Source: Opitutales bacterium
GTDB lineage: Bacteria; Verrucomicrobiota; Verrucomicrobiia; Opitutales; JABSRG01
Length of the DNA: 64,000 nt
Direction of reading: 5' to 3'
Assembly: GCA_028280845.1 (NCBI GenBank)
Contig: JANQKZ010000014.1
Coordinates: forward strand, 60,672 to 124,671
The notes below the pieces were generated by a model that saw only the letters and a program-made list of their open reading frames with translations, had not been told where the DNA came from and ran no database searches. The position numbers were made by a program, and so were the translations under genes. This document shows positions 12,068 through 27,644 of this stretch, one piece after another (the first letter of the stretch is position 1; each line of letters starts with the position of its first letter).

Positions 12068-12229
12068 TCAGCCTATTAGGGAGAGCGAGGGGGGAAATGT
12101 CGATGCCAGGAGGAAGGGCGGTCGTTGATGGTGGAGTGGGGAATGGTCCGTGGAGCGCGGGGCTGGCCCTGCGGTCCTCCCTGTTGCTTTTTGAGGAGTA
12201 AGAGCAGGAGAAGGTGTGAGGGGCTTTGC

Positions 12230-13336
12230 CTAGTGGGCATGGGCCAATTCGTACATGTTGGCGGCCATTTTGGTTGTTTCGACCCAGGCTCGCCAGGTGG
12301 CGTGGAGTTCCTGGCGGAGGCGGCGGATCTCGATTTTGATCAATCGCTTCTGTTCCGCGGTGGCTCGTTTCAGTTCCGCATATTTCCGGGTGAGCATGGA
12401 GGCCTTGGAGTCGAAGGCGTGGGCCAATTCCTCGAGTTTCCGCTTCAGCTCCGTGGCCGTTTCATCGAGTTCCTGACTCAGATGATCAAAGATGAGCTTT
12501 TTATCTTTGTTCACGAGAATCTTTTGCAGGCGGATTTTGTCCACAGTGCGGAGGTTGGAGGTCAGGCCAATCTTGGATGCCATCCAGATAATCCACTTGG
12601 AGGGATCAAAGTGATACCAGCGAATGCCATTGCGGAAGTCGTTGGCAAAGGCGTGGTGGTAGTTGTGGTAGCCTTCGCCAAAGGTGAGCAGAGCCATGAT
12701 GGCATTGTCGACAGCGGTTAATTCCTTGGCATAGGTTTTGGAGCCCCAGGTATGCGCGAGGGAGTTGATGAACCAGGTGCTGTGGTGAATTGCGAAGACC
12801 CGCAGCACAAAGGTGGAGTAAAAGGCAGCCAGCGGATCCATGAAGAGGCAGCCGAAGAGGAATATCCCGATATTGATGACGAGCGTCAGGGCCAGAAAAT
12901 GTTTGTGCTGAAACATGACCCGGGGGTTTTGCAGGAGGTCACTTACCTGGGATTCATCCATTTCCCGTTTGTAATCAAACAACCATCCCATGTGGGCGTA
13001 GAAGAAGCCCCGGTTGATGTTGTAGGGGTCCTTGTCTGTATCGACGTGTTTGTGGTGCATGCGGTGGTCGTAGGACCAGGCCAGCGCAGACCACTGAAGG
13101 GACAGGGTAGAGGCCAGGAGGGTAATCCATTCGAAGACCGGTTGGGCATTGTAGGTCTTATGGGAAAAGAGCCGGTGATAGCCCACGGTGATGGCCAAAC
13201 CGCCAATGCAATAGGTCAGAAGGAAGGCGACGGCAGCCTGCCAGGAAAAGACAGAGATGAATGCAGGAAGGAGCGCCACTACCAGGACGTGGTAAATGGC
13301 GATGAAAGCAAAGGTATCCCAATTTTTAATACGCAT
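12230..13336 (-). CDS. acyl-CoA/acyl-lipid delta-9 fatty acid desaturase with a C-terminal coiled-coil extension
   Basis: Histidine boxes are HRLFSH, HRMHHKH and HNYHH. The likely ATG is at 13336 (MRIKNWDTF...); the track ORF extends to 13405. The last ~100 aa are heptad-like and rich in K/E/L/R. Confidence 0.85.
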   Translation of the reverse strand: MRIKNWDTFAFIAIYHVLVVALLPAFISVFSWQAAVAFLLTYCIGGLAITVGYHRLFSHKTYNAQPVFEWITLLASTLSLQWSALAWSYDHRMHHKHVDTDKDPYNINRGFFYAHMGWLFDYKREMDESQVSDLLQNPRVMFQHKHFLALTLVINIGIFLFGCLFMDPLAAFYSTFVLRVFAIHHSTWFINSLAHTWGSKTYAKELTAVDNAIMALLTFGEGYHNYHHAFANDFRNGIRWYHFDPSKWIIWMASKIGLTSNLRTVDKIRLQKILVNKDKKLIFDHLSQELDETATELKRKLEELAHAFDSKASMLTRKYAELKRATAEQKRLIKIEIRRLRQELHATWRAWVETTKMAANMYELAHAH

Positions 13337-13443
13337 AGGAAAAAAAATAGTAGTACAGCCTCTAATTCGCGGCACCACCATCGGGGCAAAGCCCGGCAGT
13401 TTCAATAGCAGATTTGGAAAAAATGAAAGGGATCCAAGCGGGG

Positions 13444-14616
13444 TTAGCGGACAATTCGGCGGAGGGGAATATTCACTTGTGATGGAGCCGGCACTCCTGC
13501 TTTGATCGCGGGTAAGAAACGAACCGTTAGGATGAGTTCCCGGATTTGTTGATCGGTCTGAGGATTTCCAGTATCTACTTGAATATCAGATATTTCCCCG
13601 AGTGCGTTGAGCTGGAAAGATACCTTTGTCCGGTCGATCTGACTCGAACTCAAGACGCCTTCAAAATGGGCTATATCGAGCGGTTCAAATAGTTGTGGCT
13701 TTCGATCCGGCCCGCTGTAGTTTGTGACGTAATACCCATATAAGTATTCGTAGGCTTCATCGTCATTCATGGGAAGCAGCTCGGTGGTGAGGCTGGAAGG
13801 GAGCTCTTCGCGGCCAGTATAGAAGTGATACTGCATTTGAACGACATTGAAGTCCTTAGGGAAATTCCCCATCCACAGGCGGACTTTTTTGGGCTTGTGG
13901 GCCTCCAGATCCCCGATGGATTTAGTCAGGATATTCAAGACGGGTTTATCGCTGTCCAGCCCGGGATAGGTAAACTGAGCGACGGCAAAGAGGTAGGCTT
14001 CTTCCATATCCGTGTCCGGGGTGACCCTAAAACTAATATAGAGAGAATCGACCAGGTCGTCGCTGAACAGGAGTTGTTCCTCCATGTCTTGAATCTGATC
14101 GCGGATTTGAAGGATGTTATCCTCGGCTTCGTTGATCTGCTCCTGGATGCCACCGGCGGAGGATTGGGTCTGAATCGGAGCTGACCCGAAAACGGCATTG
14201 CTACCGGCGCGCATCAAATAGCTCAACTGTGCTTCCCACTGGCTGCGGCGAGATTCCAGAGCCTGGATGGTGGTCAGGTAGGACTCTTCCTGGCTGGCCT
14301 TGGGCCGAACCTCGAGATCTTCGACGTGAATATACTTCGTAGAAAATTTAGGGGAGCTCTTTAGTTTCAGCTGGTTTTCGTGGCTGACCCGTTTGAGTTT
14401 TCCCTCATAGGGAATGAGGAAGCGTTCATCCTCGAAGCCCATGACGGGAAACTCTTTTCCCTCATATTCAATGTGGAGGTTGATCCCGCGGAACATCGCA
14501 TTTTCCACGGGTTTATCAAAGAGGGCGGGCTGGGGGTCATTTGAATTTGCGAATAAAACTCCGCCAAGGCTGATAGCTATGCTCAGCCCGAAGGCAATTT
14601 TCCGGTGTCTAATCAT
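13444..14616 (-). CDS. secreted hypothetical protein with a possible TonB-C-like C-terminus
   Basis: 390 aa. Signal-like N-terminus, central coiled-coil segment, and a C-terminus (...ELILTVRFLPAIKAGVPAPSQVNIPLRRIVR) that resembles the TonB C-terminal fold pattern. Confidence 0.55.
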   Translation of the reverse strand: MIRHRKIAFGLSIAISLGGVLFANSNDPQPALFDKPVENAMFRGINLHIEYEGKEFPVMGFEDERFLIPYEGKLKRVSHENQLKLKSSPKFSTKYIHVEDLEVRPKASQEESYLTTIQALESRRSQWEAQLSYLMRAGSNAVFGSAPIQTQSSAGGIQEQINEAEDNILQIRDQIQDMEEQLLFSDDLVDSLYISFRVTPDTDMEEAYLFAVAQFTYPGLDSDKPVLNILTKSIGDLEAHKPKKVRLWMGNFPKDFNVVQMQYHFYTGREELPSSLTTELLPMNDDEAYEYLYGYYVTNYSGPDRKPQLFEPLDIAHFEGVLSSSQIDRTKVSFQLNALGEISDIQVDTGNPQTDQQIRELILTVRFLPAIKAGVPAPSQVNIPLRRIVR

Positions 14617-14809
14617 GGAGGGTAACAGGCCAAATCCCTAAGACTGTGAAGCAGGATTTTTGATCCAATTGGGGTTCGGCATTAAGGTTTATTACGATAA
14701 CCCCCTGTGATCAACCTCCGGGTTAGGTGACGGACCAGTAAGCCTGGAGAGAGGTATCCCTAAAAAACCGTTGGAGCAGAGGGCAAAGGGATCTATGGGA
14801 TGATGCGCG

Positions 14810-16198
14810 ATGCGAACCCAACGATTTATCCTGTTCATCTTATGCTTGGAGTGGGGCGGCTTATGGATGCATGCGGAGATTCCCGACATGCTGGTGTTCC
14901 TCACGGATGATTTGAGCCTGAGAGATGTATCCTGCTATGGGTCCCCGGATGTCCGAACGCCGAATATGGATCGGTTGGCTGCAGCCGGGATGCGGTTTGA
15001 TCTGGCTTTTGTGGCCTCCCCCGCCTGTGCGCCCAGTCGGGCTGCCCTGTTGACTGGCCTGATGCCGGCCCGGAATGGGGCAGAGTCCAATCATACATAT
15101 CCGCATGCCCCGTATTACCCCGGCTTTATCGGGTTGTTCCAGAAGATGGGGTATGAGGTGGTTTCATTTGGAAAAATCTCCCACGGGAGACTGGAGCACA
15201 AGCAACGCTGGAACTGGGATCATCTGGAGCGGCACTATGATGCGGAAACGGTACGCGCCTTTCTGGAGTCCCGCGATCCGGCTCAACCCCTGCTCCTCAT
15301 GGTGGGCACGCCTGATCCCCATGTGCCCTGGACGGAAGATATTTCTGGAGTTGGGGAGGCTCTGGTCTTGCCCCCGTTCCTGGTGGATACTGAGGAAACC
15401 CGGCAGTATCGCCGACAGTATTACGCTGATGTGATGAAGGCGGACGCAGCCTTTGGGGCCATTTACGATCTTTTCCTGGAGTATTCTGGCGAGGCATCCC
15501 CGGTTTTGTTTTCCAGCGACCATGGAGCGCAGTGGCCGGGAGGGAAATGGACTTTGTATGATGAAGGAACTCGGGTCCCACTGATGATTGCCTGGCCGGG
15601 GAGGATCGAACCGGGATCCGTTTCCGAGGCGATGGTCAGCTGGGTGGACCTTTTGCCAACCCTGTTAGATCTGGCAGGTGGTGAGCTCCCAAGCGAGATA
15701 GATGGGAACAGTTTTGCGGAGGTCCTGGAGGGTGAGCGTGCGCATCACCGAGACGAGGTGTTTACCACCCACACCGGGGACTCCAATCGGAATTTGTCTC
15801 CGATGCGAGCGGTGCGGACCGAACGGTTTAAGTATATCCGGAATTTTTACCCGCAACACCTTTACACCACCCACATCGATCATCTGCGCAAAGTGAACGC
15901 CGGAGCCTACTGGACCTCTTGGGAGGAAGCGGCCCGGGAGGACCCTGCTGCCGCTAGCCTGGTCCTCCGGTATTACCTGAAACCGGCGGAGGAGTTTTAT
16001 GATCTGGAAAAAGACCCGGAGGAACTGAACAACCTGGCGGGCGATCCACGTTACCGGGTGCATATCCATCGCATGCGGGAACAGCTCGGGGCCTGGATGG
16101 TGGAGCAGGGGGATACCCTCCGTGTGGTGTCCGACTTTCACCGAATAGAGGATCGCCAATCGCTGTTGGATGAGCTGCAGGCCGTGGCGGAAGAATAA
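14810..16198 (+). CDS. formylglycine-dependent sulfatase
   Basis: 462 aa with a signal peptide. Motifs are LVFLTDDLS and SPACAPSRAALLTGL (C-x-P-x-R). Confidence 0.9.
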   Translation: MRTQRFILFILCLEWGGLWMHAEIPDMLVFLTDDLSLRDVSCYGSPDVRTPNMDRLAAAGMRFDLAFVASPACAPSRAALLTGLMPARNGAESNHTYPHAPYYPGFIGLFQKMGYEVVSFGKISHGRLEHKQRWNWDHLERHYDAETVRAFLESRDPAQPLLLMVGTPDPHVPWTEDISGVGEALVLPPFLVDTEETRQYRRQYYADVMKADAAFGAIYDLFLEYSGEASPVLFSSDHGAQWPGGKWTLYDEGTRVPLMIAWPGRIEPGSVSEAMVSWVDLLPTLLDLAGGELPSEIDGNSFAEVLEGERAHHRDEVFTTHTGDSNRNLSPMRAVRTERFKYIRNFYPQHLYTTHIDHLRKVNAGAYWTSWEEAAREDPAAASLVLRYYLKPAEEFYDLEKDPEELNNLAGDPRYRVHIHRMREQLGAWMVEQGDTLRVVSDFHRIEDRQSLLDELQAVAEE

Positions 16199-16226: not shown

Positions 16227-17144
16227 TTAAGGGTTATCTTTGGTGAGCCGGACGTCGATGGGGCTGAGGGTATCTATATGTAAATCGCGTTGGGGGAAAG
16301 CGATGACAATTCCGGCTTCGCGGAAGCGCTGGTCGATGGTGAAGTGCAGGTCTGACTGGACTCGGCGCAGGTCCATGGGACGTTTGACATGAGTCCAGAA
16401 GAGAACGGTGAAGTTCAGGCAGTTATCCCCAAACTCTTCAAAGAGGACGATGATCTCCTGGTCTTTATCGATATCCGGGTGCTGCTTAGCGGCATCTTCC
16501 ATCAGGTCATGGACTGCCCTGGTGTCGGACCCATAGGCTACGCCAACGCGGACCTCACCGCGGAGTTTGGCGTCGAACAGAGTCCAATTGACTACCTTCT
16601 GTTCAAGAAAGAAGGAATTGGGAACCAACACGTCCACGCCGTTGGTCCGTCGAATACGAACGCTGCGATTTCCAATATCGGCGATCTTTCCACGTTCCCC
16701 ATCTTCGAGCTCCACAATATCTCCGATCCGGATTGGCCGCTCCATCATAATGATAAAGCCGGAGATCAGGTTGTTGATGAGGTTCTGCGCCCCGAATCCT
16801 ACCCCAATCGCGAGCCCTCCGCCGAGGACCGTGAAAATAGTGACGGGAATGCCGGCGATCGGCAGGGCGAGGAAGACCACGAGCAAGATGAGGCTGTAAA
16901 AGACCAGCCGCTGAATTAAATAGGCACTATTTGCGGTGAACTTGTCTCCCTGGCGAATGCGCTTGCCCAGTAGTGACGCGGTTCGCCGTGCGATGAAACT
17001 CCCTACCAAGATAACGAGGAGCGCGATAATGACCTGATTCAGGTAAACGGAGGTATCTCCGCTATTGAAGAGCCGAAGGTGCCACACGTCAAAAAACCAA
17101 TGCACCAGGGTTTGCAGTAGAGGATACTCTTCCAGGCTCATCAC
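16227..17144 (-). CDS. MscS-family mechanosensitive ion channel
   Basis: 305 aa. Three TM segments followed by the conserved PIRIGDIVELEDGERGKIADIGNRSVRIRRTNG beta-domain. Confidence 0.9.
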   Translation of the reverse strand: MMSLEEYPLLQTLVHWFFDVWHLRLFNSGDTSVYLNQVIIALLVILVGSFIARRTASLLGKRIRQGDKFTANSAYLIQRLVFYSLILLVVFLALPIAGIPVTIFTVLGGGLAIGVGFGAQNLINNLISGFIIMMERPIRIGDIVELEDGERGKIADIGNRSVRIRRTNGVDVLVPNSFFLEQKVVNWTLFDAKLRGEVRVGVAYGSDTRAVHDLMEDAAKQHPDIDKDQEIIVLFEEFGDNCLNFTVLFWTHVKRPMDLRRVQSDLHFTIDQRFREAGIVIAFPQRDLHIDTLSPIDVRLTKDNP

Positions 17145-17566
17145 TGCGCAATAAAGGCTTTCATAGCCTGCAGGGTTTCCGGGCTGACGTGGTGCTCAAT
17201 GCCTTCCGCATCTGCTTCTGCGGTCTGGGGAGAGACACCGAGCTGAACGAGAAAGTTGACCACGGTTTCATGACGCTGGCGGCTTTCTTCGGCCATGCGG
17301 GCTCCGGCCTTTGTCAACGAAATGGCTTTATAGGGTTCGGTATGGACCAGACCCTGCTCCTGCAACCGGCCGATGGTTCGAATGACTGTGACGTGAGAGA
17401 CGCCAAAATGCCGGGCGAGGTCGGTCACTCTGGCCTGTTGATCGGATTCGATGAGGCCGGCTATTGCCTCCACGTAGTCCTGGGCGATTTCCCGGGCATG
17501 TTGAGTGCGAATGCGTTGATGGTGGAGCGCACTGGCATTGGGCTCTTCCGGTGAGGTTGGGGCCAT
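17141..17566 (-). CDS. mntR: MntR/DtxR-family metal-dependent transcriptional repressor
   Basis: 141 aa. HTH is VTDLARHFGVSHVTVIRTIGRLQEQGLV, with a dimerisation helix RQRHETVVNFL. It overlaps mscS by 4 nt (ATGA). Confidence 0.85.
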   Translation of the reverse strand: MAPTSPEEPNASALHHQRIRTQHAREIAQDYVEAIAGLIESDQQARVTDLARHFGVSHVTVIRTIGRLQEQGLVHTEPYKAISLTKAGARMAEESRQRHETVVNFLVQLGVSPQTAEADAEGIEHHVSPETLQAMKAFIAQ

Positions 17567-17694
17567 GCTAGCATCATGATTTTAAAGTTCGGTTCTGACA
17601 AGTTACTTCCATGTGTGTCCCTACCCAGTCGCGCACTCAACGTGTTGTTCAGATGCACACATGGGCTTGACAAGGAGGCAGGCAGGCATCACCT

Positions 17695-17712
17695 TTGTAG
17701 CCTATGCTACAA
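17695..17712. promoter_or_regulatory. candidate DtxR/MntR-type operator: palindrome TTGTAGC-CTAT-GCTACAA
   Basis: 7-bp perfect inverted arms with a 4-nt spacer, about 25 nt upstream of the likely lipoprotein start (17737) of the metal ABC operon. Further inverted repeats are ATGCTAGCAT (17565..17574) and CCATGTGTG/CACACATGG (17609..17617 / 17656..17664). Confidence 0.45.
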
Positions 17713-17736
17713 TTGTGGACTGGGCGACGACCAAAT

Positions 17737-18744
17737 ATGAGGAGTAGACAGCGGAGGGTGATCCCTGGGCTGGCGATGCTGGCAGTGGCGGTTTTCGCGG
17801 GCTGCGGACCAAAGGCCCCCGAGGATTCAAGACAGGGCGAGTATCGTGTGGCGACGACGGTGGGCATGATCACGGATGTGGTGAAAGTCATAGCGGGAGA
17901 CCGGGCGGAGGTGCGCGGAATCATTGGTGAAGGGGTGGATCCTCACTTGTATAAGCCGACCCGAGGGGATGTGGTGATCCTGAATGAGGCGGACATAATT
18001 TTTTATAACGGGTTGATGCTGGAGGGGAAGATGGCAGACGTCCTGGTAAAAATGGCGACGCAGGGGAAGCCGGTCCAAGCGGTAACGGAGGTGATCCTGG
18101 CAGGAGGCGACTATGTCATGGTGGATGAGAGTGAGCACTACGATCCCCACGTGTGGATGGATGTGGGCGGGTGGATGCGAGCGGTGCCGATTGTGGTGGA
18201 GGCTCTGTCGGACTTTGATCCGGAAGGCCGGTCGGGCTACGAGGAACGGGGGCAGTCTTACCTGGACTCTCTCAAAGCGCTGGACGCTTATGCCCGGGCC
18301 AGTTTTTCCAGTATACCCGAGGAACAACGGGTGTTGATCACGGCTCACGATGCCTTCAATTACCTGGGGCGGGCTTATGGAATCGAGGTGCGGGGGATTC
18401 AGGGGATCAGCACGGAATCGGAAGCCGGGGTTCGCGATATTGAAACCCTGATCCGATTTATCGTGAAGCAGAATATTCCGGCGGTGTTTGTGGAGACCTC
18501 GGTCGCTGACAAAAATGTGCGAGCCCTCGTGGAGGGGGCGGCGGCGCAAGGGCATACGATCCGGGTGGGTGGGTCTTTGTTTTCGGATGCGATGGGCGCG
18601 CCGGGCAGCTATGAAGGCACCTACATAGGCATGCTCGACCACAACATTACGACGATCACCCGGGCCTTGGGGGGGACGGCTCCTGCTGGCGGGTTTCAAG
18701 GGAAATTAAGCGCCGGTTCCCCGGCTGGGAGGGGTGCCCAGTGA
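17737..18744 (+). CDS. metal (Mn/Fe/Zn) ABC transporter substrate-binding lipoprotein, cluster A-I (TroA/MntC/YtgA-like)
   Basis: The ATG at 17737 gives MRSRQRRVIPGLAMLAVAVFAGC, which contains a lipobox. Conserved motifs are DPHLYKP and DPHVWMD. The track ORF starts at 17704. Confidence 0.85.
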   Translation: MRSRQRRVIPGLAMLAVAVFAGCGPKAPEDSRQGEYRVATTVGMITDVVKVIAGDRAEVRGIIGEGVDPHLYKPTRGDVVILNEADIIFYNGLMLEGKMADVLVKMATQGKPVQAVTEVILAGGDYVMVDESEHYDPHVWMDVGGWMRAVPIVVEALSDFDPEGRSGYEERGQSYLDSLKALDAYARASFSSIPEEQRVLITAHDAFNYLGRAYGIEVRGIQGISTESEAGVRDIETLIRFIVKQNIPAVFVETSVADKNVRALVEGAAAQGHTIRVGGSLFSDAMGAPGSYEGTYIGMLDHNITTITRALGGTAPAGGFQGKLSAGSPAGRGAQ

Positions 18745-19535
18745 ATGCGATGCCGGCGCATCCCCCGGGAGACCCTGTGGCCTCCCATCCCTTGCAGATC
18801 CGTGATCTGACGGTAGCGTATCAGCGCAAGCCCGTGATCTGGGACATCGATTTAAAGATCGATGCGGGCCGGTTGGTTGCCATTGTGGGGCCCAATGGGG
18901 CAGGGAAGAGCACACTGCTGAAGGCGGCCCTGGATTTAATCCCCAAGTCGAGCGGAGAGGTCCTGATGTTTGGCCAATCCTATTCCCAGGTGAGGAAGCG
19001 GATAGGCTATGTTCCCCAGCGCGAGAGTGTGGATTGGGATTTTCCGGTGAGTGCTCTCGATGTGGTAACGATGGGAACTTATGGGCGGCTTGGCTGGTTT
19101 CGGCCAGTCAACCGTCGGGTGAAAGCGCGAGCAATGGAAGCGCTGGATCGAGTCGGGCTGGCAGATTATGCACACCGGCAGATCAGCCAGCTTTCGGGGG
19201 GACAGCAGCAACGGACTTTTCTGGCGCGTGCATTGGCCCAGGACGCGGATCTCTACTTTATGGACGAGCCTTTTGCGGCGGTGGACGCGGCGACGGAGCA
19301 AGCCATCGTGGCCCTGCTGAAAGACCTGAAGGCCAACCATAAAACCTGTCTCGTGGTGCACCATGACCTGGCCACTGTGCCGCAGTATTTTGATTGGACG
19401 GTGCTGCTCAATATGCGGGTGGTGGCCTCAGGGCCAACGGAGACCGTCTTTTTAGAGGCAAACCTGCGCAAGACCTATGGCGGTAAGCTGGACTTGTTGG
19501 CCCAGGCAGCGGAGGCGGTGCGGAAGCTCCAGTAA
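18741..19535 (+). CDS. metal ABC transporter ATP-binding protein
   Basis: Walker A GPNGAGKST, signature LSGGQQQR, Walker B LYFMDEP. 4-nt overlap with the upstream gene. Confidence 0.9.
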   Translation: MNAMPAHPPGDPVASHPLQIRDLTVAYQRKPVIWDIDLKIDAGRLVAIVGPNGAGKSTLLKAALDLIPKSSGEVLMFGQSYSQVRKRIGYVPQRESVDWDFPVSALDVVTMGTYGRLGWFRPVNRRVKARAMEALDRVGLADYAHRQISQLSGGQQQRTFLARALAQDADLYFMDEPFAAVDAATEQAIVALLKDLKANHKTCLVVHHDLATVPQYFDWTVLLNMRVVASGPTETVFLEANLRKTYGGKLDLLAQAAEAVRKLQ

Positions 19536-19549
19536 GCGCGATTGGACCG

Positions 19550-20926
19550 ATGGATTGGGAGCAGATCATAAGCGTATTATTTCTGCGGGATTACAACACC
19601 CGGCTGGTGGTTTTCTCTACCTTGTTGCTCGGTGTGACATGTGGAATCATGGGCGGATTTCTGCTCCTGAGAAAACGTTCATTGATGGGGGATACCTTAT
19701 CCCATGCCACCCTGCCCGGGATCGTGGGCCTATTCCTGGCCGGAGTCTTTCTGGGAAATGATGGAAAGTCCTTCATGCTGCTTCTGGTCGGTGCTGCAGT
19801 TACCGGTCTCCTGGGGTGTTGGCTTGTGCTCTTTATCCGCGAACATACCCGGTTGAAAGATGACGCGGCGATGGGCATTGTGTTGAGCGTATTTTTCGGG
19901 GCCGGGGTGGCATTGCTCGGCATGGCACAGACGCTGCCGGAAGGAAGTGCGGCGGGGCTGGAGTCCTTTATCTATGGGAAGACGGCTTCGATGGTAGCGA
20001 CTGACTTTCAAATCCTGGTGGTGGTGTCGCTGCTGGTATTGGGTATCTCCATCCTCCTGTTTAAGGAATTCAAGCTGCTCTGTTTTGACGAAACCTTTGC
20101 GCGGTCGCTGGGCTTCTCCACACGATGGCTCGACGTGTTGATGTTGGGACTGGTCACGGCCGTGACCGTGGCGGGGCTTCAGGCGGTGGGATTGATCCTC
20201 ATCATCGCCTTCTTGATTACACCGGCAGCGGCAGCTCGTTTCTGGACGGAGAAACTGGAGAGGATGTTAATCCTTTCGTCTATTCTAGGCGGGCTGAGTG
20301 GCTGGATCGGTGCAAGTCTGAGCGCCTTGTTGCCGCGCATGCCTGCGGGGGCGGTCATTGTCCTGGTGGCCGCGGGCTTCTTTGTCTTCAGCATGTTGTT
20401 CGGGACGGCACGCGGGGTGCTCCTGCGGTATCGCCAGCATCGGGAGCTCCGGTTCCTCGTCAGTCGCCAGCACTTGCTCCGGGCTCTTTTTGAAATTCTG
20501 GAAGGGCAGCAGTCCGGTGTGGATGAACTGGAGGTGACGCCAGTTCCCTATGAGGAGGTTCGGATTACGCGAACGTGGACGGATCGGGCGTTGAACAAAA
20601 CCCTGGCTCATGCCTTCCGGGATGGCCTGGTCAAAACCCGACCTACGGACGACACGATCCTCCTTTCCTCCCGCGGGCTTGAAGAGGCGGCAAAGGTGAC
20701 TCGAAACCACCGGCTGTGGGAATTGTATTTGATCGAGTTTGCTGATATTGCTACCAGCCGGGTAGACCGGGGTGCCGATCGGGTGGAGCATGTCCTGGGC
20801 GAGGAGTTGGTGCAGGCCCTGGAGGCCAAGCTGCAGACTTATCGCTGGGATGAGCAAGTCCTTGTTCCGGCCAGTCCCCACCCAATTGCGGGAGGGGTTG
20901 CCCCCTCAACGGAGGCCACTCCATGA
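19550..20926 (+). CDS. ABC-3 metal transporter permease fused to a C-terminal DtxR-like repressor domain (YtgC-YtgR-type)
   Basis: 458 aa. The first ~290 aa are a polytopic ABC-3 permease. The C-terminal ~150 aa contain ...TRNHRLWELYLIEFADIATSRVDRGADRVEHVLGEELVQALEAKL, which matches the DtxR dimerisation/metal-binding helix pattern (RKHRLAERLL...HDEACRWEHV). Confidence 0.8.
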   Translation: MDWEQIISVLFLRDYNTRLVVFSTLLLGVTCGIMGGFLLLRKRSLMGDTLSHATLPGIVGLFLAGVFLGNDGKSFMLLLVGAAVTGLLGCWLVLFIREHTRLKDDAAMGIVLSVFFGAGVALLGMAQTLPEGSAAGLESFIYGKTASMVATDFQILVVVSLLVLGISILLFKEFKLLCFDETFARSLGFSTRWLDVLMLGLVTAVTVAGLQAVGLILIIAFLITPAAAARFWTEKLERMLILSSILGGLSGWIGASLSALLPRMPAGAVIVLVAAGFFVFSMLFGTARGVLLRYRQHRELRFLVSRQHLLRALFEILEGQQSGVDELEVTPVPYEEVRITRTWTDRALNKTLAHAFRDGLVKTRPTDDTILLSSRGLEEAAKVTRNHRLWELYLIEFADIATSRVDRGADRVEHVLGEELVQALEAKLQTYRWDEQVLVPASPHPIAGGVAPSTEATP

Positions 20927-21840
20927 GTTGGTTACCGTTGGATACCTGGATCGTGGTGACCGGTGCGTTGTGCGCAGCGGCGTGCGCCCTCCTGGGCAAC
21001 TTCCTGGTTTTACGAAAAATGAGTATGATGGGAGACGCCATCAGCCATGCGGTGCTGCCTGGGCTGGCGATTGCCTTTCTCCTTACGGGGTCACGCTCCA
21101 GTATTGCGATGTTCATTGGGGCGGCGCTAGTCGGGGTGATGACGGCCGTGTTTACGCAGTGGATCGGCAAGTTCGGCAATGTGGAACGGGGGGCCTCGAT
21201 GGGGATCGTCTTTACCACGTTGTTTGCGCTTGGCCTGCTTCTGATCGTGAAAGGGGCGGATCACGTGGATCTGGATCCCGGGTGTGTGCTCTATGGGGCT
21301 TTGGAGCTGACCCCACTGGATCCCGGGTTTACCCTGAGTGGCTTTGGACTGACCCTGACGGTCCCGCGCGCCACGGCGGTGCTGTCTGGCATCTTTTTAC
21401 TCAATCTCGGATGCATCTTGCTCTTCTACAAGGAGCTAAAAATCAGCTCTTTTGATCCGGAGTTGGCCACCACCCTGGGAATCGATGCGCGGTGGATGCA
21501 CTATCTTCTGATGACCCTGGTGGCGATTACGGCGGTAGCGGCTTTTGAAGCAGTAGGGAGCATTATTGTCATTGCGATGTTGATCGTCCCGGCAGCCTCG
21601 GCCTATCTCTTGACCCACCGGTTGTCTACAATGATTCTCCTGAGCCTGGTTTTCGGAGTGGCCGCAGCGGTGTTAGGCCATATCTCCGCCATCACGGTGC
21701 CTCACTGGTTTGGGTTTTCCGATACTTCCACCTCCGGGATGATGGCCGTGGTGTCCGGAGTGCTCTTTGGGTTGGTTGTTTTGTTGTCCCCCAACCAGGG
21801 ATTGTTGTTTCGATCTCGTCGAACGGGGAAGGCAGGTTGA
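20923..21840 (+). CDS. ABC-3 metal transporter permease (second subunit)
   Basis: 305 aa polytopic membrane protein, paralogous to the N-terminal part of the upstream gene. 4-nt overlap. Confidence 0.9.
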   Translation: MSWLPLDTWIVVTGALCAAACALLGNFLVLRKMSMMGDAISHAVLPGLAIAFLLTGSRSSIAMFIGAALVGVMTAVFTQWIGKFGNVERGASMGIVFTTLFALGLLLIVKGADHVDLDPGCVLYGALELTPLDPGFTLSGFGLTLTVPRATAVLSGIFLLNLGCILLFYKELKISSFDPELATTLGIDARWMHYLLMTLVAITAVAAFEAVGSIIVIAMLIVPAASAYLLTHRLSTMILLSLVFGVAAAVLGHISAITVPHWFGFSDTSTSGMMAVVSGVLFGLVVLLSPNQGLLFRSRRTGKAG

Positions 21841-21896: not shown

Positions 21897-22508
21897 TTAG
21901 TGGTATCGGGTTTCTTGAAGGGCTTTGCGGATCCGGTTCCAGATGGTGAGGAGGCAGAGGAGGGAGAGGATGATGAGGAGGGGATTGGTGAACACGAGGA
22001 AGGACGGCCAGATGCCGCCGAAGGCGGCCCATGCCCCGATGACGAAGGCGCGGTCACTTTTGCCCATGGGGCCATCGTAACGGCGGGAGGCTCCGATCTG
22101 GACGGCGATGCAGCCTGTTGCCTCCGTGGTGACGGCGAGGATGGCGAAGAGCGCTGCGAGGGGAAAGCATACCCCCGGAATGAAACCGAGGGCGAGGTAG
22201 AGTGCGGCGTCGGAAAGGATATCGCCCAATTCATTCAGGAAGGCTCCGAGCTTACTTTTCTGGTTAAACTCTCGAGCCAACATGCCATCGATTGCATTCA
22301 AGGCCATGCGGATGAAGAGGACGGCCGGGTAGGCGAGAATCGCGATACGCAATTCGGGATAGGCGGCGAGGGCAGTGGCTGCGAGGATGGATAGGAAAAG
22401 CGCAAACAGGGTGACCTGGTTAGCCGTGATCCCGGCCTTCTCCAGGCGGTGACAAAGGGGCCGAAGGAGGTTCTGGAATTTTGTTTTCAGCTTGTAGATG
22501 GAAGGCAC
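21897..22508 (-). CDS. CDP-alcohol phosphatidyltransferase family protein
   Basis: 203 aa. Signature D-G-x2-A-R-x8-G-x3-D-x3-D, read as AIDGMLAREFNQKSKLGAFLNELGDILSD. Confidence 0.85.
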   Translation of the reverse strand: MPSIYKLKTKFQNLLRPLCHRLEKAGITANQVTLFALFLSILAATALAAYPELRIAILAYPAVLFIRMALNAIDGMLAREFNQKSKLGAFLNELGDILSDAALYLALGFIPGVCFPLAALFAILAVTTEATGCIAVQIGASRRYDGPMGKSDRAFVIGAWAAFGGIWPSFLVFTNPLLIILSLLCLLTIWNRIRKALQETRYH

Positions 22509-22517
22509 GTTTTAAAG

Positions 22518-22559
22518 CCGTAAGTCGGAAATCAGTAATTGGAAATCGGCAGTAGGAGG
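22518..22559 (+). repeat. degenerate heptanucleotide array (locus D, ~6 units)
   Basis: ccgtaag tcggaaa tcagtaa ttggaaa tcggcag taggagg. Same strand and phase logic as loci A/B. Lies between the cdsA stop and the CDP-alcohol transferase start. Confidence 0.6.
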
Positions 22560-22574
22560 GCGTGGGTCCGGGAA

Positions 22575-23525
22575 TTATTGGCCGAAGAAGTAGCGGACGA
22601 CGTGGTAGTAGACGGGGGCGGCGAAGCAGAGAGAGTCGATGCGGTCCATCATGCCGCCGTGGCCGGGAATGATAGTCCCATAGTCTTTGATACCTCGATC
22701 CCGTTTGATTGCTGACATGACCAGGCCACCGAAAAAACCCATGAGGCAGAGCAACATCGCCATGGCACCGGCCTGCCAGAAATTAAAGGGGGTGGCCCAC
22801 CAGAGGCAGGCCCCCACCAGGGAGGCGGAAAGTGTCCCACCAATCAGGCCCTCGGCGGTTTTATTCGGGCTGAGTTTGGGAACGACCGGGGTTTTACCGA
22901 TAGATTTGCCCCATACGTACTGGAGAACGTCTGAGACCTGGACCACGATGACCATAAAGAGCAGGAGCTTCACATTTTCGCCTTCGTAGCCATCGATTTC
23001 GAGGGTGAGGAGCCCCGGACCATAGCTGATGAAATAGACGCATACCATCAATCCCCACTGCACCTTTGAGGTCCGTTCCAGGAAGTCTTTCGTCTCCCCC
23101 GCGAGGGCTGCTCGGATTGGTATGAATATAAACGCGTATACCGGGATGAAAATGTAGGCAAACCCACCCAACTCCATGCCGATGGTCAGGTATTGCGCAG
23201 GGAGGATGAAAAAGAAGGCCCAGAACAAGGCTCGATGATCCCCCTGGCGGGTAGGGGCCATGGTAATAAACTCCCGGAGAGCTTGAAACGATATGGCTGT
23301 AAATATGATGAGGGTGCCCACTTTCCCGACCATGAGGGCGACCCCGAAGGTGGCGATCATGACCCACCATGCCTTTATACGAGCCAAGAGATTGTGATAA
23401 AACCTGGAGCTGCCATCCGGATCCAAGCGGTGGCGGAATGACCGGGCGAAAAGCGATGCGAGGGAGATCGCGACGATAACGCCAGTGATCAACAACATGA
23501 GTTCCGCATCGAATTGCAGGTTCAT
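22575..23525 (-). CDS. cdsA: phosphatidate cytidylyltransferase
   Basis: 316 aa. CdsA signature is SAIKRDRGIKDYGTIIPGHGGMMDRIDS. Confidence 0.9.
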   Translation of the reverse strand: MNLQFDAELMLLITGVIVAISLASLFARSFRHRLDPDGSSRFYHNLLARIKAWWVMIATFGVALMVGKVGTLIIFTAISFQALREFITMAPTRQGDHRALFWAFFFILPAQYLTIGMELGGFAYIFIPVYAFIFIPIRAALAGETKDFLERTSKVQWGLMVCVYFISYGPGLLTLEIDGYEGENVKLLLFMVIVVQVSDVLQYVWGKSIGKTPVVPKLSPNKTAEGLIGGTLSASLVGACLWWATPFNFWQAGAMAMLLCLMGFFGGLVMSAIKRDRGIKDYGTIIPGHGGMMDRIDSLCFAAPVYYHVVRYFFGQ

Positions 23526-24163
23526 GGGGAGGACACCTTTCGTTGAGAGACGTGGATGGAGTCCTCCACATCATCCTGGGCGAGGAGGGCAGATTTTGCT
23601 TTCTGCAAGAACGCATCTTTGTGCTCCCCAGCATCGAGGTAGAGCGGATCTCCGTAGATTAAGGTGGCGATCAAGGGCAACGGGAAGAGTTCCCCCTTGG
23701 GCAAAATGCGGAAGAGATTGTTTAGCAGCACGGGGATGAATACGGTCTCATTCGTAGATCGGGCGAGGTGGTAGAGGCCACTTTTAAATTCTCCAACTTC
23801 CCCCGTTCGACTCCGAGTCCCCTCGGGAAATATGATCAAGTTGGATCCTTCAGAAAGGACCTGTTTCATCTCCTGCATCGGGTTGTTTTCCCGAGTGACC
23901 GCGCGACGCTCGATCAAAATGGCGTGGAATACTTTGGAGGCCAGGTAGCGGCGGAGTTTGTTTTTGGTCCAGTAGTCCTTGGCGGCAATGGGGCGGGTGA
24001 TTGCTCGGACCTCCCGGGGTAGTGAGGCCCAGATGACAGGGAAATCCAGGTTACTTGTATGGTTGGAGAAAAAGACTATCGGTTTCCCCTTCGGTAACTC
24101 CGGGAATCTCCGCACCGTGCAACCGCTGAGCACACGAATCAGAACAGCGAGGAAGACAGCCAT
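23522..24163 (-). CDS. plsC: 1-acyl-sn-glycerol-3-phosphate acyltransferase
   Basis: 213 aa. H-x4-D box NHTSNLD and FPEGTRS. 4-nt overlap with cdsA. Confidence 0.85.
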   Translation of the reverse strand: MAVFLAVLIRVLSGCTVRRFPELPKGKPIVFFSNHTSNLDFPVIWASLPREVRAITRPIAAKDYWTKNKLRRYLASKVFHAILIERRAVTRENNPMQEMKQVLSEGSNLIIFPEGTRSRTGEVGEFKSGLYHLARSTNETVFIPVLLNNLFRILPKGELFPLPLIATLIYGDPLYLDAGEHKDAFLQKAKSALLAQDDVEDSIHVSQRKVSSP

Positions 24164-24392
24164 TGCTCCAACCTAACGGTTGGAAGAGGAAGTGGGAAGG
24201 ATTTAGTGTCGAGTGTCTGGTGGCTAGTGGTGGGATGCGGGGTTCGGTTTGGGTTTGTTTTGTTTTCTGTATCGAAGATGAGGAAGATGAAGGGTAAGAG
24301 GATAGGGGGAGGAATGGTTCGACAAAGTGTGGGGGAAGCGATGTGTTGATCACGGACTTTTCTTCACTAAAACCGCTACACATTTTTAGTTT

Positions 24393-25142
24393 ATGCCGGA
24401 TTCCGAAATCAGATCGGACTATGATGATATTGCAGATGCTTACCGGGAATCAAAGAAGCATAGTTTTCGGAGCGTCATTGAGGAACATACCTTGTTTACC
24501 GTAGCAGGCGATGTATCCGGATTAGATATTGTGGACCTTGCTTGCGGCGAAGGTCACTACACCCGAAAGCTCAAGGCTGCCGGAGCTGCATCCATTCTGG
24601 GCGTGGATCTATCGGCGGAGATGATGAAACTCGCCATCGAGGCAGAACAGGCAGATCCCTTGGGCTGCACCTATCTGCAGCAAGATGCCTCTACCTTGGA
24701 ATTGGAGAAGCAAGTGGACCTCGTGGTGGGTATGTTCCTGCTCAACTATGCCCGATCTTTTAATGAGCTGCTGGCATTTACGCGTAGCGCTTTCCGCCTG
24801 CTGAAGTCGGGCGGACGCTTTATTGGCTTTAATGATAATCCCTTAATGGGAGCCACGGATGTTGGATTTTACACTCAGTATCAGTTTGAGAAAATTCGTA
24901 AGCCTGATGCTATGCCTGGAGACGTCATCATCTATCGGGTGACAAATCTGGATGGAACAGTATTTGATATTATCAATTATTATCAACCACCCGAAGTCTA
25001 TACCACCGCATTCGAGGAGGCAGGCTTTGCTGATTTTAAGTGGGATGGTCCGTATTTACACCCGGATGCCCAAGGTGATCCTCACTGGGACCGCTTTATG
25101 CAATCTCCTCCCTGTAATGGGTTTACCGCGACCAAACCGTGA
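24393..25142 (+). CDS. class I SAM-dependent methyltransferase
   Basis: 249 aa. Motif I is IVDLACGEGHYTRKL. Confidence 0.8.
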   Translation: MPDSEIRSDYDDIADAYRESKKHSFRSVIEEHTLFTVAGDVSGLDIVDLACGEGHYTRKLKAAGAASILGVDLSAEMMKLAIEAEQADPLGCTYLQQDASTLELEKQVDLVVGMFLLNYARSFNELLAFTRSAFRLLKSGGRFIGFNDNPLMGATDVGFYTQYQFEKIRKPDAMPGDVIIYRVTNLDGTVFDIINYYQPPEVYTTAFEEAGFADFKWDGPYLHPDAQGDPHWDRFMQSPPCNGFTATKP

Positions 25143-26632
25143 CCGAACCCAAATCCAACGCAAGGTCTATCAGCGGAGGCGACGCCTCCTTGACCAATCT
25201 TGATCTGGCCCCGGTTCCCCTGGCGGAGCGGATATGGACGCGGTGGAATTTTGCCTCCCTGTGGATAGGTATGGCTGTCTGTGTGCCGACTTATATGTTG
25301 GCAAGCAGTCTGATCGAAGGGGGGATGAATTGGTGGCAGGCTACCCTTACCATCCTTTTGGGGAATCTCATCGTATTGATTCCCATGATCCTGAATGGTA
25401 TTCCGGGGGCGCGATATGGAATCCCGTTTCCCGTTCTGCTTCGGGCGAGTTTTGGTACCCGAGGCGCGGTGTTTGCCGGCCTGCTGCGCGCTCTCGTGGG
25501 GTGCGGCTGGTTTGGTATCCAAAGTTGGATCGGTGGCAGTGCCCTCTATCACCTCCTCCTGGTTCCGATGCCGGAACTGCAGCAGACTCCCTACCTGGGA
25601 GATTTCATTGGATTTAACTTAGCTGAGGGTCTCTGTTTCCTGGCTTTTTGGGGGCTCAATATCTGGGTTATCTGGAAGGGAATGGACTTGGTGCGCCGCG
25701 TAGAGAGTTGGGCGGCCCCCGTTCTTCTGGCTGCAGGGTTATTACTTTTTGGTTGGGCTTGGATGGAGGTAGGCTCTTTCCAAAAGGTGTTGGATGCCTC
25801 TAAGCATATTCAAGGAGATAGCTCTCAGGGTTTCGGTACCCATTTCTGGCCGAGCCTGACTGCCATTGTCGGCTTTTGGGCGACTCTCTCTCTCAACATT
25901 CCGGACTTTACGCGATACGCCCGAAGCCAGCGGGCGCACATCGAAGGCCAAACTATCGGGCTGCCCGCAACTATGGTGGCGTTTTCCTTTATCGGGATTT
26001 TTGTAACGAGTGCCACTGTTCTGATCTATGGCGAAGATATATGGAATCCAATTGATCTACTGGCCCGATTTGACACCCTTTGGGTCGTGGTCCTCTCCAT
26101 GGTGATCCTGTCGGTGGCCACGTTATCGACGAATATTGCAGCGAACATTGTGGCGGCGGCCAACGACATTTCCAATGTCGCACCAGACCGAATCGGGTTT
26201 CGCATGGGGGGATTGATTACCGGAATAATTGGTATCCTGATGTGCCCGTGGAAGTTGATTGCGGATCCCCAGGGCTATATTTTCCTGTGGCTCATTGCCT
26301 ATTCCTCGCTGCTGGGCGCAGTCGGAGGAATCATGATCGCCGATTTTTTTATACAAAGGAAGGGGGTCCTTCAGACCAAAGACCTCTTTCTGGAATGTGG
26401 AATCTATAAACGCTGGAATGGTGCGGCCTGGTGGGCTCTGGGGATCAGCCTCCTGCCCGTTCTCCCCGGCTTTTTTCACCAGGTGGGTCTCTTCGACCTG
26501 TCCGAGCGGGGGCATTTCTGGGTAAGCCTATACGATTACGCGTGGTTCATCACGCTTTCGATTTCGATGGTTGTTTATCTGGGGCTGTCCAATTTGTCCA
26601 AGCAGTCAAGTTTACCCGAACTTACCACCTGA
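25139..26632 (+). CDS. NCS1-family nucleobase/allantoin/cytosine-type cation symporter
   Basis: 497 aa, 12 TM. The N-terminal NLDLAPVPLAERIWTRWNFASLWIGM is typical of NCS1. 4-nt overlap with the methyltransferase. Confidence 0.85.
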   Translation: MTEPKSNARSISGGDASLTNLDLAPVPLAERIWTRWNFASLWIGMAVCVPTYMLASSLIEGGMNWWQATLTILLGNLIVLIPMILNGIPGARYGIPFPVLLRASFGTRGAVFAGLLRALVGCGWFGIQSWIGGSALYHLLLVPMPELQQTPYLGDFIGFNLAEGLCFLAFWGLNIWVIWKGMDLVRRVESWAAPVLLAAGLLLFGWAWMEVGSFQKVLDASKHIQGDSSQGFGTHFWPSLTAIVGFWATLSLNIPDFTRYARSQRAHIEGQTIGLPATMVAFSFIGIFVTSATVLIYGEDIWNPIDLLARFDTLWVVVLSMVILSVATLSTNIAANIVAAANDISNVAPDRIGFRMGGLITGIIGILMCPWKLIADPQGYIFLWLIAYSSLLGAVGGIMIADFFIQRKGVLQTKDLFLECGIYKRWNGAAWWALGISLLPVLPGFFHQVGLFDLSERGHFWVSLYDYAWFITLSISMVVYLGLSNLSKQSSLPELTT

Positions 26633-27644
26633 ATTGCTGGGGTCCAAAGTCTGAAAAGTCGGACTGGTAATAGGCTGTGACCTGTTCACCCGGAGGGACA
26701 ATTGCATCTACTGCGCGGTTATCCTCCTCGGTGATTTCTACGGGGAGGGCGTTGAGATAGGATTCCAACTGGTCCGTGGTCCGCGGGCCTATGATCGGGC
26801 TGGTGATTCCGGGCTGGGACATGGCCCAAGCGGTTGCAAATTCGGCGAGGGTAATCGATTTGGCATTCGCCAGCGGGATAAGGGCCTCGACTGCCTGGAG
26901 GGCTGATTCTCTGAGGCGCATGGCATGCCTCCAGTTTTGCGTGTCGGCGTAGCGGGAGTCCGATGGCGCTTGAGTCGCCTCGGTGGTGGTATATTTGCCG
27001 GTCAAGAGTCCGCCCGCGAGCGGACCAAAGGGAAGGAGTCCAAAACCATAGGTCTGGGCCATCGGGATCAATTCTCTCTCGATTCTTCGATCCAGAATAG
27101 AGTAGGGAGGCTGCTCAGTCACAAACCGATTCAGGTTTAATTCTTTGGCGGTCCATAGCGATTCGACCAATTTCCAGGAGACAAAAAAGCTGGTACCGAT
27201 ATAGCGCACTTTTCCCGCGCGGACCAGGTCATCCAGTGCCCTGAGCGATTCGTCGATGGCGACCTCTGAGCGGGGGCGATGGAGTTGGTAAAGATCGATG
27301 TAGTCTGTTTGCAGCCGCTTCAAACTGGCATCGCACTGTTCGATAATGTGCCGCCGGGAGATGCCCTCCATATTGGGATCATCATCCGCCATGGCGCCGT
27401 GGACCTTGGTCGCCAGGATGACCTGGTTGCGTTTGCCGATGCGCTTCAGTCCTTCACCGGTTATTTCCTCACTGCGGCCTCGTGAATAAACATTGGCCGT
27501 GTCCAACAGGTTAATGCCTGCCCCGATCGCACGATCGATGATCGTGTAAGCGTCTCCAGGGGAGGTTTTACTTCCAAAATTCATGCAACCCAGGGTAAGT
27601 GGGCTGACTTTCAGGCCGGTGCGGCCCAAGAGGCGGTACTTCAT
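26622..27644 (-). CDS. aldo/keto reductase
   Basis: 340 aa. MKYRLLGRTGLKVSPLTLGCMNFG..., DTANVY, and the overall AKR pattern. Confidence 0.9.
   Translation of the reverse strand: MKYRLLGRTGLKVSPLTLGCMNFGSKTSPGDAYTIIDRAIGAGINLLDTANVYSRGRSEEITGEGLKRIGKRNQVILATKVHGAMADDDPNMEGISRRHIIEQCDASLKRLQTDYIDLYQLHRPRSEVAIDESLRALDDLVRAGKVRYIGTSFFVSWKLVESLWTAKELNLNRFVTEQPPYSILDRRIERELIPMAQTYGFGLLPFGPLAGGLLTGKYTTTEATQAPSDSRYADTQNWRHAMRLRESALQAVEALIPLANAKSITLAEFATAWAMSQPGITSPIIGPRTTDQLESYLNALPVEITEEDNRAVDAIVPPGEQVTAYYQSDFSDFGPQQFRW

Follow-up and report, generated by a model that had tools for sequence, protein, structure and literature searches.

The stretch analysed here (the window; 64,000 nucleotides (nt) of contig JANQKZ010000014.1, from an Opitutales bacterium) carries an operon for an ATP-binding cassette (ABC) metal importer in which the first of two permeases is fused to a C-terminal DtxR/TroR-type domain, called the tail below (Table 1). 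The fusion occupies a single uninterrupted open reading frame (ORF), without frameshifts or stops, and its product matches two Pfam families within one polypeptide: ABC-3 (PF00950) over amino acids (aa) 19-284 with an E value of 1.2e-59, and Fe_dep_repr_C (PF02742) over aa 375-430 with 46.9 bits against a gathering cutoff of 27. The genes follow in the order solute-binding protein (SBP), ATPase, permease::DtxR and second permease, with 4-nt overlaps or a 14-nt gap between them; the ATPase start overlaps the SBP stop by 4 nt, and the ATG of the second permease overlaps the TGA of the fusion gene (ATGA). A stand-alone mntR gene is transcribed divergently from the operon. A preliminary description, made from the letters of this DNA alone, had proposed the fusion, a gene order as in the chlamydial ytgABCD operon and a divergent stand-alone MntR. 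All three are confirmed, the first by the two Pfam domains, the second by Pfam and NCBIfam models for the flanking genes, and the third by a score above the cutoff of the NCBIfam MntR equivalog.

Table 1. Features of the fusion operon and its divergent promoter region, in window coordinates (residue numbers are those of the fusion protein)
Feature	Position	Strand	Description
MscS-family gene	16227..17144	-	Pfam MS_channel_2nd, MS_channel_3rd
mntR	17141..17566	-	MntR, E. coli type, two-domain, 141 aa; NF008273, PF01325 + PF02742
Palindrome ATGCTAGCAT	17565..17574		10 bp, perfect; spans the mntR start codon
Divergent intergenic region	17567..17736		170 bp
Inverted repeat CCATGTGTG / CACACATGG	17609..17617 / 17656..17664		9 nt, perfect; 38-nt spacer
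TTGACA	17667..17672		consensus hexamer, 21 nt upstream of the MntR-type box
MntR-type operator (putative) TTTGTAGCCTATGCTACAAT	17694..17713	.	inverted repeat, position weight matrix (PWM)
Extended -10-like element TGCTACAAT	17705..17713		overlapped by the putative operator
SBP gene	17737..18744	+	periplasmic metal-binding lipoprotein (TroA/MntC/AztC cluster); Pfam ZnuA, E 6.6e-74
ATPase gene	18741..19535	+	ABC ATPase subunit; Pfam ABC_tran, E 4e-30
Permease::DtxR fusion gene	19550..20926	+	PsaC/TroC-type permease::DtxR, 458 aa
Permease domain of fusion	19550..20410	+	aa 1-287; eight transmembrane helices; PsaC/TroC type
DtxR/TroR-type tail of fusion	20411..20926	+	aa 288-458; PF02742, profile against Protein Data Bank structures, AlphaFold2 (AF2)/Foldseek
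Long helix	aa 290-320		leads directly into DtxR helix 1
Winged helix	about aa 331-373
Dimerisation/metal domain	aa 374-430
SPH motif	aa 442-444		C-terminal; protein ends ~15 residues later
Second permease gene	20923..21840	+	YtgD/TroD equivalent, tail-less; Pfam ABC-3, E 2.9e-47

The permease encoded by the fusion gene is of PsaC/TroC type and belongs to a manganese-class (Mn/Fe/Zn) ABC importer. In the model, the permease part superposes on PsaC of the Streptococcus pneumoniae Mn importer (7kyp) with a Foldseek template-modelling (TM) score of 0.88, a root-mean-square deviation (rmsd) of 2.8 Å and 32% identity. PsaC ends after its last transmembrane helix, whereas the window permease continues into the tail. 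The best NCBIfam models for the SBP are AztC, EfaA and MntC, each below its cutoff, and those for the ATPase are manganese/iron ABC ATP-binding proteins (PRK15056, MntA), also below cutoffs. We infer a Mn-class importer because the permease is PsaC-like, the SBP TroA/MntC-like and the operon probably under MntR control. The SBP ORF as listed begins at 17704, within the MntR-type operator; the probable true start is the ATG at 17737, which would yield the lipoprotein signal MRSRQRRVIPGLAMLAVAVFAGC. The exact fusion protein is already on record in NCBI (P0245).

The preliminary description had assigned roughly the last 150 residues to the DtxR family, and this assignment holds. Beyond the PF02742 match, the single tail sequence aligns with DtxR residues 35-117 (phmmer, E 4e-6), and a profile built from nine tails recovers, among solved structures, DtxR over residues 9-125 (E 1e-12) and SloR over residues 5-118 (E 4.5e-13). 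The same profile matches the MntR proteins of E. coli and B. subtilis at only about 3e-3 to 8e-3. Because it scores DtxR and SloR far better than the MntRs, the tail can be placed by sequence in the DtxR/SloR/TroR branch and not in the MntR branch. The winged helix is recovered by the family profile (through DtxR residues 9-64) and by structure prediction, AF2 giving helix, helix, helix and a two-strand wing; an SH3-like third domain is lacking. The AF2 model of the tail alone has a predicted local distance difference test score (pLDDT) of 85.8, and that of the full-length fusion, with eight long helices, has a pLDDT of 91.0 and a predicted TM score (pTM) of 0.85. Taken from the full-length model, the tail superposes on the DtxR-DNA complex 1ddn_A (Foldseek TM score 0.83, rmsd 2.8 Å over 123 columns) and on DNA-bound DR2539 (2.4 Å). 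None of the solved structures matched by Foldseek spans both a permease and a DtxR-like tail.

The motifs NHRLWELYL and ADRVEHV are present in the tail and align with DtxR H79..E83 and C102..H106. Ligand-competent residues occupy all seven DtxR metal positions, four of them identical to DtxR and three being other nitrogen or oxygen (N/O) ligands. H308, D410, E413 and H414 (equivalent to M10, C102, E105 and H106, H308 falling on Met10) form the putative primary site, and H387, E391 and D406 (equivalent to H79, E83 and H98) the putative ancillary site. All of these are N/O donors, with no sulfur, a pattern that fits Mn(II)- or Fe(II)-type sensors in the literature on DtxR and MntR selectivity; the set thus suggests Mn(II) or Fe(II) as the putative metal of the tail. 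Across 77 diverse fusions H387, W390, E391, E413 and H414 are invariant; in closer relatives H308, D406 and D410 vary little if at all, and the same holds for the R-x-W motif that opens the recognition helix. The family consensus further has basic residues at the positions equivalent to DtxR R47 and R50. The tail is still under selection as a putative metal-binding module.

Fusions of this build are very common among free-living bacteria, the verrucomicrobium studied here included, and form a very large family to which chlamydial YtgC-YtgR also belongs. An exhaustive search of 1.84 billion cluster representatives returned 1119 matches at E <= 1e-30, and of the 150 that scored best, no two of them 50% or more identical, 136 contain both permease and tail. 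In a scan of one genome per species with the nine-sequence tail alignment as the query, the tail is encoded at no fewer than 568 loci (at least 568 species genomes). The best 80 loci fall in Opitutales/Puniceicoccaceae, Limisphaerales, Verrucomicrobiales, Akkermansiaceae (including Akkermansia muciniphila), Planctomycetota, Lentisphaeria, Kiritimatiellia and Spirochaetia, and in these 80 fetched loci the order SBP, ATPase, fused permease, second permease is the same wherever the contig allows. The nearest named relatives, from Coraliomargarita and Puniceicoccaceae, are 67-69% identical to the window protein. Annotation pipelines label such fusions merely "metal ABC transporter permease". The preliminary description had further proposed that the fusion predates the intracellular life of chlamydiae. 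A spread over at least 568 species genomes makes this a reasonable view, but it is not a new one: orthologous permease-repressor fusions in 11 bacterial phyla are credited to Thompson et al. 2012 in a passage of a 2017 review of chlamydial iron biology (PMC5599777).

Among the closest characterised systems is Chlamydia trachomatis YtgC-YtgR (CT069/CTL0325) of the ytgABCD operon, which shares with the window the order of genes and the order of domains, with a DtxR/TroR-like C terminus on the first of two permeases. The N terminus of YtgC resembles TroC, and its C terminus TroR, of Treponema pallidum; YtgR is cleaved off and mediates metal-dependent repression of the ytg promoter (PMC5599777). 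Homology between the window protein and chlamydial fusions was read through a Parachlamydiales fusion (P0471), which aligns end to end with the window protein (30% identity, 445 aa, E 3e-58) and was the only named chlamydial relative in a homolog search seeded with AT-rich representatives; its winged-helix segment is shorter and lacks R-S-W-S. The window protein, for its part, lacks the WWW motif, which ties chlamydial YtgR to tryptophan (PMC7755916). In Treponema troABCD-troR, which encodes a transporter of the same family, TroR is a Mn/Fe repressor from the same branch of the DtxR family as the tail, but there it is encoded by its own gene, the last of the operon, whereas in the window the TroR-like module is fused to TroC. 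Enterobacterial SitC lacks a DtxR-type domain (its matches cover the permease part only), in contrast to the window permease. By sequence criteria the window gene is a YtgC-YtgR/TroC::TroR fusion in every respect except a TroR-type operator at its own promoter.

The promoter instead faces a dedicated regulator. The stand-alone MntR scores 175.7 bits against a cutoff of 153 on the NCBIfam equivalog NF008273, aligns with E. coli MntR (2h09) at an E value of 4e-32 and keeps the Mn ligand motif DAEGIEHH. A search of the window found no further DtxR-family gene. Between mntR and the SBP gene lies a putative operator, written out as TTTGTAGC-CTAT-GCTACAAT and of the AACATAGC-N4-GCTATGTT type, with perfect 7-bp arms (TTGTAGC at 17695..17701 and GCTACAA at 17706..17712) around a 4-nt spacer. 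The putative operator shares bases with an extended -10-like element that lies ~25 nt upstream of the probable SBP start. With a PWM for MntR-type (class B) sites trained on other loci only, the window being excluded, it scores 27.2 bits within a training range of 18.4-28.0, and the runner-up in the 64 kb scores 12.9. No TroR-type box was found: the best PWM score is 10.1 anywhere in the 64-kb window and -10.4 within 17541..17760, against a training minimum of 17.4. We also note that the start of the MscS-family gene overlaps the mntR stop by 4 nt, and the two genes are probably co-transcribed.

A new observation is the division of fused-operon promoters between two types of operator. We searched for palindromes in the 300 nt upstream of the SBP gene at the 71 loci with enough sequence. 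Class A, the TroR-type TTGA-N4-TCAA, occurs at 41 sites in these upstream regions (21.3 kb) against 14 in the remaining 851 kb (~117-fold) and is present at 40 of the 71 loci. Class B, the MntR-type TAGC-N4-GCTA, occurs at 12 upstream sites against 5 in the remaining 851 kb (~96-fold), at nine of the 71 loci. Class A has exactly the core of the TroR operators determined by experiment in T. pallidum (ACTTTGATGCATCAAAAT) and T. denticola (ATTTTGATATATCAAAAT) (PMC2628430), and Spirochaetia loci (L053, L071 and L079) are among its carriers; the putative YtgR operator has likewise been reported to align with the TroR operator (PMC6504234). The Treponema core is thus shared with 40 of 71 fused operons and not with the window. 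The class B core and spacing are those of the enterobacterial MntR consensus AACATAGCnnnnGCTATGTT (PMC1698941), found at mntH and sitABCD. The window operator has this core and 4-nt spacing in common with the enterobacterial sites and differs in the outer half-site bases (TTGTAGC against ACATAGC). An unbiased enumeration of every 4-mer dyad with spacers of 0-14 over the 71 promoters gave classes A and B only; the promoters share no other motif that might serve as a site of the tail itself.

At loci that have a stand-alone regulator, the class of operator goes with that regulator and not with the tail. A stand-alone DtxR-family gene lies directly upstream of the SBP gene at 27 of the 71 loci, nearly always divergent, and encodes either a small two-domain MntR type (136-177 aa) or a ~220-aa three-domain DtxR/TroR-like protein with an SH3-like end. 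Of the eight loci that have a small MntR next door, none has a class A box; of the other 63, 40 do (Fisher p = 7.4e-4). The closest sisters of the window (L002-L009) have no adjacent mntR; their class A box, which in L002 reads ACTTTGAGTATTCAAAGT, follows a TTGACA -35 element at a distance of 14-16 nt. The window's combination of fusion, divergent mntR and MntR box is seen again in at least two other loci, L059 and L061. The recognition helix of the tail is nearly the same in class A and class B loci; for example, the tail helices of L059, with mntR and three class B boxes, and L048, with a TroR-like gene and a class A box, are ~68% identical. Covariation of the recognition helix with operator class is therefore uninformative as a guide to the tail's site, and the near-identity of the helices in turn speaks against the tail as what sets the class of operator. 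A class A box stands without any adjacent regulator in 24 loci, and examples of such an arrangement are found in Spirochaetia (OZ242313.1 and OZ251573.1); in these loci the tail is the obvious candidate reader, by analogy with Chlamydia.

Three side observations touch these promoters. Position 62 of the tail (N349 in the window) is equivalent to DtxR S42, which we take to be a DNA-backbone contact; it is R in all eight closest class A sisters and R or K in most other class A loci, and N, Q or G in the window and six of the eight loci with an adjacent small MntR, a pattern confounded by shared ancestry. A consensus TTGACA also lies upstream of the MntR-type box in the window and may be a leftover of an ancestral promoter or part of the current one. 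Finally, at a locus of A. muciniphila (L046, CAMCXS010000113.1) the fusion operon has a co-directional upstream gene for a 247-aa TroR-like protein and a TroR-type box, TTTCTTGATCGTTCAAGATT.

We consider it very probable, from the match, uniqueness and position of the box and its recurrence with orthologous mntR genes in L059 and L061, that the operon is repressed by Mn-loaded MntR at 17694..17713. Binding of Mn-MntR to this single palindrome, across the extended -10-like element, would silence the operon under sufficient Mn. The assignment of the box to MntR is not airtight, because the same core also occurs in Planctomycetota loci without an adjacent mntR (L050, L052, L060, L064 and L076). 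Since the promoter has no TroR-type operator where most relatives have one, the fused tail probably does not autoregulate in the window.

This outcome departs from the preliminary description, in which two DtxR-family regulators could converge on one promoter: the promoter holds one strong MntR-type box and no TroR-type box. That a released tail and MntR together repress through the intergenic region (17567..17736), perhaps sensing different metals, strikes us as improbable. YtgR does autoregulate the ytgA promoter in Chlamydia (PMC5599777), the intergenic region contains further symmetric elements (ATGCTAGCAT and the CCATGTGTG/CACACATGG repeat), and the tail could conceivably read the MntR-type core in the Planctomycetota fused operons that lack an adjacent mntR. 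These points are countered by the best TroR-type score of -10.4 in the intergenic region, by the dyad enumeration over 71 promoters without a third shared motif, by recognition helices that are nearly the same across opposite operator classes, and by the mutual exclusion of TroR-type boxes and adjacent small MntRs. As for the symmetric elements themselves, the repeat corresponds to neither class of operator, and Rfam gives nothing for it. The palindrome at the mntR start codon contains GCTAGC, that is, the MntR-box half-site cores abutted in reverse order, and has a class B score of -5.8; it might be a weak autoregulatory site or a chance occurrence.

The best explanation overall, to which we give an even chance, is that MntR controls the operon and the tail is a metal-sensing DNA-binding domain that is released and acts elsewhere. 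The tail would be a metal-activated DNA-binding domain, freed from the membrane so that it can dimerise, as in Chlamydia, and the freed tail would act on sites outside the 64-kb window, which is the part of the genome covered by our search for tail targets. For the part of this proposal that concerns the tail alone, a DNA-binding repressor needing release and acting beyond the window, we lean slightly in favour because of the fold resembling DNA-bound DtxR, the conserved R-x-W, the basic R47/R50 equivalents and the chlamydial precedent. A free tail could in principle also arise from an internal start at Met283, a residue that is not conserved in the family consensus. The preliminary description had looked ahead to a cleaved fragment of 15-20 kDa. 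This differs from Chlamydia, where the YtgR cleavage product is 28-30 kDa (PMC5599777, PMC7755916), larger than the ~19 kDa DtxR-like tail; a product of that size would therefore retain part of the permease.

Several observations weigh against a released, DNA-binding tail. PF01325, the DtxR N-terminal DNA-binding domain, does not match the tail even at E <= 10. Among 77 aligned fusions, at 60-80% permease identity, the winged helix is ~35% identical and the dimerisation domain ~71%, and such poor conservation of the winged helix could reflect weak constraint on DNA binding. A dedicated DtxR-family regulator adjacent to 27 of 71 related operons would be odd if the tail sufficed as a repressor. 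At loci with a class A box but no regulator beside it, the reader could be a TroR-like protein whose gene is unlinked. We observe in addition that the TroR-type operator core is constant across phyla while the winged helix evolves fast.

Some of these same observations suit a different role, in which the tail remains attached to the permease, takes up cytoplasmic Mn or Fe at its DtxR-type sites and slows or locks the importer by an allosteric effect (trans-inhibition), with transcription left to stand-alone regulators, MntR here and TroR-like proteins elsewhere. Cytoplasmic ligand-binding domains that could sense imported substrate are known from MetNI (C2) and ModBC; they sit on the ATPase and are not DtxR-like, so that the parallel is an analogy only. 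The membrane junction is short and confidently modelled: about five non-helical residues separate the last transmembrane helix from the continuous helix of aa 290-320, with a pLDDT of 96-98 around residues 270-300 in the model of pTM 0.85. The metal/dimerisation subdomain equals the permease in conservation and the winged helix does not, separate regulators adjoin 27 of 71 operons and the operator class follows them, and the window tail is ligand-complete though its promoter has no TroR-type box. Conversely, in Chlamydia YtgR is released by cleavage and acts as a transcriptional repressor (PMC5599777), R-x-W is invariant in closer relatives and basic residues hold the R47/R50-equivalent positions, and among solved structures the tail of the model fits DNA-bound DtxR and DR2539 best; the known trans-inhibition domains (MetN C2, ModC), moreover, are borne by the ATPase and not by the permease. 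On balance we regard such an in-place sensor, with transcription left to other regulators, as the main alternative for the window, though a tentative one. Its extension to all Verrucomicrobiota, with the tail as a permease-borne sensor gating the importer and MntR or TroR-like proteins in charge of transcription, seems unlikely.

The window operon has only one tail per permease pair, but in Planctomycetota and relatives (L050, L052, L060, L061, L064, L065, L067, L075, L076 and L077) both permeases are tailed. The second tail in those loci belongs to a different subfamily, with LVRSHRLWE.YLV, ..IHRQAEKLEHY and DPHG. Two tails could form a DtxR-type dimer within one transporter, without release from the membrane, which speaks for sensing in place. 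Other architectures were also seen. P0102 (824 aa) is permease-tail-permease in one polypeptide, from which a single cut could not free the tail, and P0099 and P0117 (760 and 806 aa) are permease-permease-tail; these three could be gene-calling or frameshift artefacts across the ATGA overlap. A Bacillota cluster (P0189; Sutcliffiella / Bacillus tianshenii) has a 452-aa fusion with LKNRLMDMYL in place of HRLWE; its type of tail escapes the tail query and may be degenerate or repurposed.

We also considered whether the tail is a decaying remnant, functionless in this lineage after MntR took over, and find this very hard to credit. The loss of the cognate operator and the N at position 62, where the eight closest sisters with TroR-type boxes have R, would fit decay. 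Yet none of the seven ligand positions has been lost, the R-x-W, HRLWE, VEH and SPH motifs are all preserved, and the reading frame is undamaged. At 40% identity to sisters, the winged helix in the window is no more divergent than is usual for the family (35 ± 10%), and the dimerisation domain (74% identical to sisters) is as conserved as the permease (72%). Relaxed constraint specific to the winged helix of the window was rejected on the same figures, the sisters that keep TroR-type boxes being alike in this respect.

Beyond the operon, the Pfam-scanned neighbours (10106..16198 and 21897..27644) are unrelated to metal handling; their products include a sulfatase, a desaturase, lipid-synthesis enzymes, a cytosine/purine permease and a methyltransferase. 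Rfam gave no match in the 64-kb window at gathering thresholds and none within 17000..18200 at E <= 1.

The fusion itself is a published architecture present in hundreds of species and is not a discovery. The window is a clean case of a fully conserved tail without a cognate site at its own promoter, and it sharpens a question for the Chlamydia field, namely what purpose a permease-tethered DtxR domain serves and whether it needs to be cleaved. The useful part is the operator comparison, which together with culturable hosts makes that question more tractable. Culturable, non-pathogenic Coraliomargarita and Akkermansia are hosts in which simple genetics and biochemistry can be done, and the human gut bacterium A. 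muciniphila could serve as an experimental host. If the tail proved to be a sensor that stays on the permease, it would be the first such regulatory domain on the membrane subunit of an ABC importer, and would prompt a re-reading of the role of uncleaved YtgC in Chlamydia.

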